Source of the DNA: Podarcis gaigeae
Lineage: Eukaryota
Direction: 5' to 3' (one strand)
Length of the DNA: 64,000 nt
Assembly (NCBI GenBank): GCA_964106915.2
Contig: OZ066920.1
This document shows positions 8,581 through 32,134 of the stretch, one piece after another. Position 1 is the stretch's first letter, and every line of letters begins with the position of its first letter. The notes under the pieces were generated by a model. The model saw only the letters and a list, made by a program, of their open reading frames with translations. It was not told where the DNA came from and searched no databases. The position numbers and the translations under genes are program-made.

Positions 8581-8641
8581 CAAGGACATCCAATGAAGAA
8601 ACTGCAAGATTCAGAACAGATTAAAGAAAGTACTTCACTAC

Positions 8642-9271
8642 TGTGCTGGGCCCAGGGGTAACCCATGAAACTCGGTCCAGGACCGGTTCAGAATCCAAAG
8701 GTTCTGCTGGGAGTCAGTCTGACAGGGCCAAGGCAGAACACGAGGCAGGAAACCAAGCAAGGACAAGTATGGGATTTCAGGCAGAATCTAGCATACAGCA
8801 ATGTTGCTCGCACAACCTGGGGTGGGTTCCAACAGCCTTTTATCTTTGTCAGGGTAGCGGCCGGTCCTATCCCCCAGCGACTCACCTCCCTGTTTCACCT
8901 GAAGGCGAGCACTCCTCCTGCAAGTACTCAGGTCTCTCCTTTTCTCAGACCTGAGTCTCTGCAGCTTGGGAAATGTCAGTGGGTTACTAGACCCAGCGGC
9001 CGCCTCAGACTCCCCTGACCAAACCAGTAGTGGAGCTGCTGTAAGTGATGTCCCAGCTGAAGGCAACAAGGTAATCCCCGCATCTGGAGCCAGGGCAGGC
9101 TCAGGCCCCTGACTCGGCCCAGCTAGTGTTTGTTGCAGGAGAACCTGTGCTGACTGGGACTCTTCAGGATCAGGCCCCAGACTTGGTTCAGAAGATGCCT
9201 GAGGCAAAGGATCCGGTACAGACTGCGTCTCCTCTGGTTCCGAGTCTGAGCCCAAGTCCCAGGCCATAACA
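8642..9271 (-). mobile_element. Solo LTR (probably Gypsy-type), 630 bp
   Basis: TGT...ACA termini; perfect 5-bp TSD ACTAC (8637-8641, 9272-9276); cleanly splits a CR1 fragment; TATA-like GATAAAAG on the minus strand near 8840. Confidence 0.8.
8788..9267 (-). other. Uninterrupted 159-codon ORF inside the solo LTR (acidic/Pro-rich N-terminus, basic RRSARL region)
   Basis: ATG 4 nt inside the LTR edge; MAWDLGSDSEPEET...RLRSEKRRDLSTCRRSARLQ; expression unknown. Confidence 0.45.
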
Positions 9272-10621
9272 ACTACACAGTGCATAATTAAACTATGGAG
9301 CATTGCTGGCCACCAACCTGGATATTTTTAAATAAGAGGGCTATCCCTCTTATTAAGGTGATATGGCTCCACAGTTGGAGGCAGCAATGCTTCTGAATAC
9401 CAGTTTCTGGAAACCACAGGAGGGGAAAGGGCTCTTGTGCTCGAATCCTGCTTGCAGGTTTCCCAAGGGGAATTAGTCGGCCACTGTGAGAACAGGATGC
9501 TAGATTAAATGAGCCATTGGCCTGATCCGGTAGGCTCTTCTTGTGTTCTTATGAGCCTCCCACTGTGGAAAGCCCAACAGTAGTGGTGCTTGTCTGCCGT
9601 CAGAATTCCAGTGCTGGGGAGGACAAAACGGAGACATTCTGGGAGAGGCTGTGGATGCACAGTGTCCCAGTCTCTCCCATTCCTCTGCCACATGCTGGAA
9701 CTGCTGTGATTTATTTCAGGGGGAAATCCTTTGCTTGTGAGGTGGAATCTTCCAAAAGGAAGTTCGATGTTCCCTCCCCGTCACCCTTTCCCTAGTGCTG
9801 GTGAAAGCCCAGCAGGTATTTGACTATTCAAACCACATATGAGTCTCTCTCCCCTGACGCAGTGGAATTGCTCTGCCCTCTGCTCTTTATCTGCAACCCT
9901 ATGTGCGCTTACTTGGAAGTAAGCCCCACCAAATACAATTCACACCAGCAAGTTAACAAACACAGGACTGTGTTGGTTCCCACTAAAGAACATGGCTCAG
10001 CAGCACCCAATCACAAGTAATATAATTTATTAAATGCATATACGGGAAAATATTAAATCATAACTGGGAGGCTGGGGGCACTCCTGGTTGCATCTCTGTC
10101 CCTTGACCTCAAATGCTAGGGGTCACTTTTGCCAGCTTCGGCTGGTAAAGACAGTTATGGCTCCTTCTGGACCGGGATAGCTGGTAACTTCCAGGTTGGA
10201 TTACCGCAGTGCCTGTTTATGGGACTGCACTTGAGGCTGCTCTGGAAGCTGTGGTTGGTGCAGAATGCAGCAACTCATCTGCTCACTGGGGCAGGATATC
10301 ACTGACATGTTACCCTGCTGTTGGAATTAACTGGCTAGGTTCAAGGTGGTGGTAAACCACCTGGGACCAGGATACCTGAAAGATCATCTCACCCCTTAGA
10401 TAACCAATCAGTCCCTGCACTCTGCAGATGAGGGCCCCCTGAAGATACCAACTTGTCAAGAGGTTCATTCTGTACAATATAGGAATATCAGGCACTGTCT
10501 CTGTTGTCTTTTTGGTGTCTGTTGATGACCTCCCACTACCAACAAGCCTTTTAAGTAGAAAAATTGTCCAGTCTGCATCTGTACTGGAATATATTTTAAG
10601 AGGTTTTTGAGATGTTTTATC

Positions 10622-15861: not shown

Positions 15862-16091
15862 CAGTGGTACCTCGTGATACAGACCCTTCAGGTTACAGAC
15901 TCAGTACCTAACCTAGTACCTAACCCAGAAATAGTACCTCAGGTTAAGAACTTTGCTTCAGGATGAGAACAGAAATTGTGCAGTGGCGGCAGCGGGAGGC
16001 CCCATTAGCTAAAGTACCTCAGGTTAAGAACAGTTTCAGGTTAAGAACAGACCTCCAGAACAAATTAAGTTCTTAACCCGAGGTACCACTG
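15862..16091 (+). mobile_element. Tigger/pogo-type MITE
   Basis: TIR CAGTGGTACCTCG/CGAGGTACCACTG flanked by TA on both sides. Confidence 0.9.
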
Positions 16092-16178
16092 TAAGTTAAC
16101 CCTAAGTTTAGTTGTCAGAATGCAATTGCAATTTGCTAATAGCTCAGGTTGCGCATGATGTGCTTAACTACAGTATCC

Positions 16179-26548: not shown

Positions 26549-26806
26549 ATGAAAATGTTTTTCACTTACATTCCCCACCCCCAAAGACTTGAACAGAACA
26601 TTAAAAAACAGTTGCACAGAACCATTCAAATCCTGGCTTGACAGTGGCGGAGCATGAGGGAATATCAGAACCACCAACATGTCCACAGCACCACTGCTCA
26701 CAGAGGCCAGGGGTCGGGCAAATTGCTATGCCAACCTGGACACAATATCTCCAGTGATAGCACTGTGACTAGCTCAGATTATTCTGGGGGATGCAGTGGG
26801 TCTATA

Positions 26807-27047
26807 CAGTGGTACTTTGGTGTACGAACTTAATCCGTTCCGGAAGTCTGTTCTTAAACCGAAACTGTTCTTAGACCAAGGCGTGCTTTCCCTAATGAGG
26901 CCTCCTGCCACCAGTGCCCTTCCACCGTTTGGGTTCCGTTCTTAGACTGAGGTAAAGTTTGCAAACCGGGACACTACTTCCGGATTTGCAGAGTTCGTAA
27001 ACCGAATAGTTCGTAAACAGGGCTGTTCTTAAAGCGAGGTACCACTG
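26807..27047 (-). mobile_element. Tigger/pogo-type MITE, different subfamily, opposite orientation
   Basis: TA-CAGTGGTAC...CGAGGTACCACTG-TA; its start is the reverse complement of the end of 15862-16091. Confidence 0.9.
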
Positions 27048-27966
27048 TATGTCTATAACTGACAAGTCATTCTTTTTCTGCATTTATGTAAAAGAGGTTA
27101 GAAGAAGATATATCCTTCCTCCACTCCATCTTTTGATGTTTGGCTAAATATTATTCTATCTTTTCCAACACCAAAGACAACTAAACCTTTCTCTACAATG
27201 GACTTTCATCCACACCAGCAAGACAACCCTGATACTCTTGCCTGGTTCATTTTATGCCAAGCAAATCTGGAACATAAAGTTTCTAAAGAAGGACAATTTC
27301 TTTTTGTGTATCTTTTTAAAACATCTTATAATGTCTTGGGGGGGAGTAGGGGGAAGTGAAACAGAATAAGCAAAGGTAATATTGATGTAATTGCTTCCAC
27401 TGTTTTGAGAAGGAAGTGAAAGGCAAAGTGCTGTCTTTAAATTACCAGGAATACCTCTCTCTCATTAACTCAGTCTCTCTACTATATCCTGTATACGCCT
27501 GAGTTTTCTGCTGAAACCAGAGAGGAGGTGCATGGTTTTGTAGAAAGGAAGATGTGAGAAATTTGCATGCATTTGTGCATAAAAATCACTGTCAGCATAA
27601 AAGAAACCCACTTAGTTCCTAAATGAAATGCATTTTGGCAGATGAGTGACCACAAGAAGCGAGAAGATCTGGTTACTAGGGGATGTCTGTCTAAAGTTTA
27701 GTTACAGGAAGGTCAGAAAGAGCTTGATTGACTAAATGATGGATCGTAAAGCCCTTTTCACACTTAATGGGCTATGGAAACCATTCAAACAAAAGGAGAC
27801 CCTCTGCTAGGATGCAACCCTTGTTTGATTCTCAGTGAGAATCTACTAAGATGCCCCAAACCATCTTCCTTTTCCAACAATTCCAAATACAGCCCAAAAA
27901 ATAAAATAATAATTTGATACTATTGTTTCATTGTTATTGCCTTAAAGAAAGTCTCTCTAGTTTTAT

Positions 27967-31861: not shown

Positions 31862-32090
31862 CAGTGGTACTTCGGATTACAAACACCTCAGGTTACAAAA
31901 ACTTCGGGTTAGAGACTCTGCTAACCCAGAAGTAGTACCTCAGGTTAAAAACTTTACCTCAGGATGAGAACAGAAATTGTGTGCCAGCGGCAGCAGGAGA
32001 CCTCATTAGCTAAAGTGGTACCTCAGGCTAAGAATGGTTTCAGGTTAAGAACGGACCTCCAGAACTAATTAAGTTTGTAACCAGAGGTAC

Positions 32091-32094
<4 letters not shown>
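31862..32094 (+). mobile_element. Tigger/pogo-type MITE
   Basis: Collinear with 15862-16091; 5' TA present; 3' TIR runs into (TG)n. Confidence 0.9.

Positions 32095-32134
<40 letters not shown>
32093..32134. repeat. (TG)n microsatellite
   Basis: Direct reading. Confidence 0.95.

Follow-up and report, generated by a model that had tools for sequence, protein, structure and literature searches.

A Podarcis solo LTR of Tf1/sushi type, and an integrase tail read from U3 in its sister subfamilies that may bind the nucleosome acidic patch

The solo LTR and its features

The window analyzed here is the whole stretch of 64,000 nucleotides from the lizard Podarcis gaigeae. Positions 8642–9271 hold a 630-bp solo LTR with TG...CA termini and minus-strand element sense, and the perfect 5-bp target-site duplication (TSD) described in an earlier note on this DNA, which was made from its letters alone, is indeed present. 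The locus has the following parts.

8637..8641, no strand: left copy of the TSD, ACTAC, an exact repeat
9272..9276, no strand: right copy of the TSD, ACTAC, an exact repeat
8642..9271, minus strand: solo LTR belonging to the older W subfamily of a Tf1/sushi-type chromovirus, as judged by copy comparison and PPT-LTR junctions
8814..9271, minus strand: putative U3, which in the 3' LTR of full elements would also code for the C-terminal tail of Pol
8788..9267, minus strand: open frame, 159 aa here and 142 aa as the subfamily norm, homologous to the LTR-encoded Pol tail
8929..8970, minus strand: basic segment PKLQRLRSEKRRDL, with a helix predicted in the sister-subfamily protein (low-confidence model)
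8902..8919, minus strand: RRSARL, an HMGN-like motif, residues 117–122 of the frame
8880..8887, minus strand: splice-donor-like AG/GTGAGT shortly past the motif, present in 28 of 30 ranked copies and the point at which an NCBI Podarcis gene model exits the frame of the LTR
8837..8844, minus strand: TATA-like box GATAAAAG, containing the usual tail stop codon of the subfamily
8804..8813, minus strand: self-primer site, degenerate in the window copy, and probable start of R, 31 nt past the TATA-like box
8642..8803, minus strand: presumed remainder of R, and U5

The orientation is given by a genome pattern search: 195 sites show a purine tract ahead of the LTR on the strand of the frame (control, 0), against only 5 matches, unrelated-looking, for the opposite orientation, which was therefore discarded. 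No AATAAA or ATTAAA polyadenylation hexamer was found in the R/U5 part of the LTR. Elsewhere the window has a single run of N (55020–55405) and another dispersed repeat at 15920–16092 and 31921–32096 with an inverted arm near 26805–27049, the closest pairs of which are 84–89% alike.

The long minus-strand frame that had been read from the letters is borne out, running from an ATG at 9267 through RRSARL to a stop at 8788. A stop-free run of 142–159 codons from a fixed start has a probability of 0.005–0.002 at the base composition of the window, and RRSARL is present once across its six frames. Counting the window copy, 13 of the 30 copies that match best have a frame of exactly 142 aa, which makes the frame a feature of the family. 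The length of 159 aa is peculiar to the window copy. Relative to all 14 of the 631-nt copies compared, it lacks one base near LTR position 403, 3' of the motif, and this deficit carries the frame past the usual stop inside the TATA-like box. The ATG belongs to the terminal TG-N-ATG end sequence of the LTR and is therefore no evidence of a separate gene; TGATG ends are noted for plant chromoviruses (PMC3059260). Pfam returned no family at E ≤ 1 for the window frame, and the best score of an ESM Atlas search was an uninformative 0.78. The motif matches six of the eight residues of the HMGN core RRSARLSA, the trailing SA being absent, and has the arginines at motif positions 1, 2 and 5 that an HMGN-like motif of the Dsup/Dot5 type requires (PMC12871379, PMC12487698).

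Family, parent elements and classification

The 1.5-Gb genome holds 1,636 candidate copies, 40 of which were scored, and 469 exact matches to the first 20 bases of subfamily W, to which the window copy belongs. An exact 5-bp TSD of their own flanks 23 of the 30 best copies (window copy counted), and W copies are 89–91% alike. The nearest named homologues come from Podarcis, which suggests a lacertid lizard as the host. In Podarcis muralis, the ATG, motif and splice donor of a W-type LTR lie in a coding exon of the NCBI model LOC114604991 (two isoforms; P0002/P0274); the exon is linked to other sequence and is a candidate case of exonisation. Solo LTRs of subfamily W cluster at chromosome ends, 62 of 84 lying in the terminal 15% at either end compared with 11 of 31 PPT-linked young copies (contigs C1–C3), which may reflect a target preference or a faster formation of solos under high recombination.

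The parent elements found fall in six younger sister subfamilies, A to F, whose 5' and 3' LTRs are about 1% different in the tail (66 differences over 6,384 sites). Five patterns and one protein search of the genome returned no PPT- or PBS-linked parent of subfamily W; the sole candidate for such a parent proved to be a solo whose TSD resembles a PBS. The W tail aligns with the A–F tails at both ends, and the LTRs are 67–75% identical over parts. Upstream of the PPT-linked LTRs of the sister subfamilies lies an integrase with a chromodomain (Pfam Chromo, E 1e-15) situated 5' of the PPT, and the domains of a close UniRef relative are PR, RT, RNase H, IN, SH3 and Chromo (P0003 and P0004 examined). 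Uninterrupted two-LTR elements measure about 5.2–5.8 kb, with one shorter and one longer outlier. The PBS is not tRNA-like. Its pairing partner is a site some 31 nt past the TATA-like box, matched over 10 nt in 9 of 13 two-LTR elements and over 7–8 nt in 3; in 1 there is no pairing at that site. Self-priming of this kind is described for the Tf1/sushi group (PMC6317226).

The order PR-RT-RH-IN-chromodomain, the TG...CA LTRs, the 5-bp TSD and the self-priming PBS that does not use tRNA are all shared with the vertebrate Tf1/sushi chromoviruses (GyDB V-clade: Sushi-ichi, Amn; PMC6317226, PMC2774666). Subfamily W is provisionally filed with this V-clade through the homology of its LTR, the internal features named here being those of the sister subfamilies. 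In most of the Tf1/sushi relatives fetched, Pol ends at or just past the PPT, whereas in the lizard family it takes 116–142 more codons from U3 and ends in RRSARL. In the young LTRs L068 and L086, the R/U5 part (positions ~419–630) carries a variable number of 42-bp tandem units, so that an element may have a longer LTR at one end than at the other. A small contig (C32, 29.5 Mb) carries 32 of 97 LTR-PBS pattern matches; a non-recombining sex chromosome would be expected to show such an accumulation.

Read-through of pol into U3

In the sister subfamilies, pol passes in frame from the chromodomain through the PPT into the U3 of the 3' LTR, in the order chromodomain, acidic and proline-rich linker, basic segment, RRSARL and a stop at the TATA-like box. 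The same read-through is seen in UniRef proteins of Podarcis muralis (P0004, P0263–P0265). Among the first 100 of 157 junctions, the in-frame class is the modal one (52), followed by junctions one base short (22), one base long (20) and off by two in either direction (3 and 3). In-frame junctions are the modal class in subfamilies A, B, D and E and off-frame ones are scattered in A, B and D; the frame is kept at 36 of 71 distinct junctions, but at only 11 of 30 when the set is ranked by a Vipera protein. The variation comes from the length of a homopolymer run that lies before the PPT, and slippage and assembly error look alike in these data. In the one-base-short class Pol ends at the LTR edge, like that of many chromoviruses.

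RNA reads from a related organism cover the pol end, the PPT and U3 on one strand at a depth of 1–5 in one run (X23); a second bulk run (X24) leaves part of the pol end uncovered. The reads show no start-site peak, and junction depth was too low for indel calls. Many U3 reads continue into unrelated flanks on both strands, as expected because solos inside host transcripts would give such reads.

The pairing of the self-primer places the start of transcription downstream of the whole frame, which would therefore be U3 and out of reach of the LTR promoter. The earlier note had located the frame in U3 and had offered two possibilities, an ORF in its own right or a read-through tail of pol/integrase. 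The location agrees with the probable start site; the second possibility is demonstrated in the sister subfamilies, and the first is not supported, since a frame wholly upstream of the LTR start would serve as the tail of Pol and would not be a gene that the solo LTR has for itself. Full-length parents with pol in frame through the PPT, which the note had proposed to look for, are on record for sister subfamilies, and none was found for W by the five patterns and the protein search. Overall, the frame very probably has the architecture of a Pol tail, and by homology subfamily W would have had the same pol-U3 junction as its sisters. The window copy itself is likely a fossil, probably dead and unable to make the tail from its own promoter.

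The motif in other lineages

Some other LTR elements also have RRSxR-like stretches close to the C-terminal end of their integrase. Beyond Podarcis, the connection of RRSARL with the end of Pol is reinforced by its recurrence, as RRSAR[LI], at the Pol C-terminus in distant lineages. Anolis Pol terminates in RRSARIAAKNLAN (clusters of 366 and 94 members) after a linker unlike that of the Podarcis family, and a related Anolis variant ends in RRSLRI. Two chromovirus fragments from ENA, which were matched on stretches excluding the motif, end in RRSARIAARV (P0198) and RRSARLAAAH (P0215), and two frog Pols (P0018, P0019) have RRSPRL near the end. The linkers before RRSAR[LI] are unalignable between the lizard, Anolis and the two ENA elements. 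In a pooled count that took 222 of 338 proteins, with a filter that left out both frog proteins, RRS[AP]R[LI] was found in 5 of the 222 Pol tails, in four lineages and always no more than 16 aa from the C-terminus; shuffled tails had a mean of 0.03. The strict motif was found in 0 of 95 proteins of a second set, and the motif in an open tail in 0 of 68 metagenome or viral (IMG/VR) loci, a sample dominated by one family. The motif is a minority feature, rare among chromoviruses. Tails of Rhineura (P0105) and Vipera (P0227) have an acidic linker and a basic end with other final motifs, one of them with an RGRP stretch. Translated PPT-LTR junctions suggest that the tails are LTR-encoded in other species too. 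A tree from a quick, unfinished search, in which 4 of 51 chosen proteins were left out as having no chromodomain match, needs six changes of motif label, at least four of them forced by strong branches, and therefore points to repeated gain or to an old gain with losses.

Selection on the tail and decay of solo copies

Left out of the selection test were 5 of 25 two-LTR elements, together with 32 of 59 W copies, of which 25 did not stay in frame as far as the motif region and 7 had another length. Two neutral controls gave pN/pS values of 0.70 (5' versus 3' LTR) and 0.73 (solo versus solo). Between W and the six sister subfamilies, the corrected dN/dS of the frame is 0.26–0.38 and that of the motif block 0.13–0.20, with a dS of 0.8–1.1 against a dN of 0.14–0.16 in the block; the alternative two frames give 0.68–1.73 for the same comparison, and pairs among A–F give 0.33–0.96. 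The frame is kept over seven subfamilies out to a dS near 1, has no stop in the subfamily comparison after masking, and differs in net length between subfamilies by multiples of 3. In uncorrected Fisher tests, the whole frame is null on codons (p 0.6–1) with third positions at p 0.04–0.18, and the motif block is borderline (p 0.045–0.3), the six comparisons being non-independent. At the DNA level, the motif codons hardly vary among the seven lizard subfamilies. Together these comparisons are suggestive, and no more than suggestive, of purifying selection on the tail within the lizard.

Young 3' LTRs are open to the basic segment in 24 of 28 cases and have the exact motif in frame in 21 of 28. 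Among 30 unranked copies the corresponding numbers are 8 and 3, and of 27 in-frame W solos 9 have lost the arginine of the anchor, for the most part through CpG-type changes. Solo copies decay neutrally. The preservation of the ORF that the earlier note had put forward as a check is thus seen between W and A–F and disappears among solos, whose ratio equals the neutral one; the conservation of RRSARL likewise holds across the lizard subfamilies and fails in the unranked copies. Its proposal that solo LTRs scatter working copies of the peptide through the genome was not upheld, as the solos lose frame and motif at the neutral rate and just 3 of 30 keep both.

Proposed function and alternative explanations

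The acidic patch of the nucleosome is a target of such motifs in several proteins. In a cryo-EM structure of HMGN2 the RRSAR core lies on the acidic patch with the last arginine as the anchor (PMC12487698), yeast Dot5 uses RRSARIAT (PMC12871379), and foamy virus Gag contacts this patch, too, through an arginine anchor (PMC6042332). In the mechanism proposed here, translation of pol through the PPT into U3 would give the integrase a tail of acidic linker, basic helix and RRSARL, which would remain on the enzyme after proteolysis. The fifth motif residue would act as the arginine anchor, as in HMGN2, Dsup and Dot5, and the flexible linker would allow RRSARL to dock on the H2A-H2B acidic patch. 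The nucleosome could then be held at two points, the chromodomain reading a histone-tail mark and the tail gripping the acidic patch. In a low-confidence single-sequence fold of chromodomain and tail (mean pLDDT 48), the sole helix lies just ahead of the motif and the rest is coil; AlphaFold 3 is reported to model HMGN-nucleosome binding poorly (PMC12487698). By analogy with these proteins, an anchor function of the tail seems probable, though well short of certain. The combined reading, of a lizard Tf1/sushi solo LTR whose sister subfamilies read pol into U3 and so make an integrase tail whose RRSARL would bind the H2A-H2B acidic patch, is on balance the favored one.

The tail could instead be a real extension of integrase in which the basic segment and RRSARL serve as a nuclear-localization or DNA-binding patch and do not contact the acidic patch. 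The Rhineura and Vipera tails, with the same layout of acidic linker and basic end and no RRSAR, fit such a role, as do the short arginine-rich stretches in which many chromoviruses end; the exact RRSAR[LI] in four lineages after unalignable linkers, however, exceeds what a generic basic patch needs, and the quick tree forces its label to change repeatedly. We regard this explanation as unlikely. Still less probable is a role at the DNA level, in which the motif region is preserved as a promoter element of U3, some 57 nt upstream of the TATA-like box, and RRSARL is a by-product of an open GC-rich frame. The near identity of the motif codons in all seven lizard subfamilies and the weakness of the codon-level tests speak for it, but the flanking basic segment changes synonymously, at the dS and dN given above for the block, indels preserve the frame, and pol and the motif share a frame in Anolis, the frog and the P0198 and P0215 elements, at varied distances from the chromodomain.

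There is little room for the two remaining explanations. If host transcripts reading through solo LTRs gave rise to a separate chromatin-binding peptide that the host kept, one would understand the ATG in good context, the splice donor 3' of the motif, the NCBI Podarcis model XP_077791897/6 that starts at the corresponding ATG, and the U3 reads that run into flanks on both strands. The solos nevertheless evolve at the same ratio as the post-insertion control, few unranked copies are still open or retain the motif, and a third of the in-frame solos have lost the anchor arginine; for the family as a whole a host-kept peptide is refuted by this decay, and the explanation is very improbable. An equally slight chance attaches to the read-through being a tolerated accident with no function. 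The out-of-frame state of about half of the junctions, and a one-base-short class in which Pol stops at the LTR edge, are what such an accident would allow; against it, the frame is preserved to high dS over the seven subfamilies and also across Anolis families.

Relation to known systems and significance

Extension of pol into the 3' LTR is already known from plant CRM elements, where a CR motif replaces the chromodomain (PMC3059260, PMC3605345). The sister subfamilies share this extension with the plant centromeric CRM group A. They are set apart from it by the presence of a chromodomain (with its Y/W/Y residues) 5' of the PPT, to which the LTR adds a short motif; the hosts differ as well, a plant there and an animal here. 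With HMGN, Dsup and Dot5 the tail shares the RRSAR core, the three key arginines and a low-complexity context, and the Anolis RRSARIAA equals the Dot5 RRSARIAT in seven of eight residues. The lizard frame, which has no Pfam match, is not an HMGN gene; the tail lacks the trailing SA and is fused to an integrase. Foamy virus Gag is likewise a retroelement protein with an arginine anchor on the acidic patch; its motif lies in Gag and is not described as LTR-encoded in the account available (PMC6042332). In Arabidopsis Tal1 one arginine in integrase's C-terminal region sets target choice, but this is a plant element for which the consulted part of the report names no acidic-patch contact and describes no LTR-encoding (PMC11735389). 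Among the matches listed, the literature held no description of an RRSARL-type motif in integrase; the original Anolis and Gao 2008 accounts may mention the extension. What would be new is the combination of a chromodomain with an LTR-encoded HMGN-like motif, unannotated in the UniRef translations.

It is settled for few LTR retrotransposons how their integrases choose nucleosomes and hold on to them, and the review literature, as far as it was available, gives the partner of the LTR-encoded CR motif as unknown. A six-residue motif with a solved binding mode at the end of an integrase, present in lizards, frogs and the ENA lineages, makes docking on the acidic patch testable with peptides and nucleosomes. 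More tentatively, and with the odds somewhat against it, chromoviruses may repeatedly have made U3 code for an HMGN-type integrase anchor for two-point recognition, with slippage in the homopolymer toggling the tail between copies. If the anchor is real, HMGN-like motifs would extend to mobile DNA, and the promoter region of a vertebrate LTR would be under protein-coding constraint. In the lizard genome, the solo LTRs leave behind hundreds of ready-made exons, each with an ATG, the motif and a splice donor, that are open to co-option by the host.
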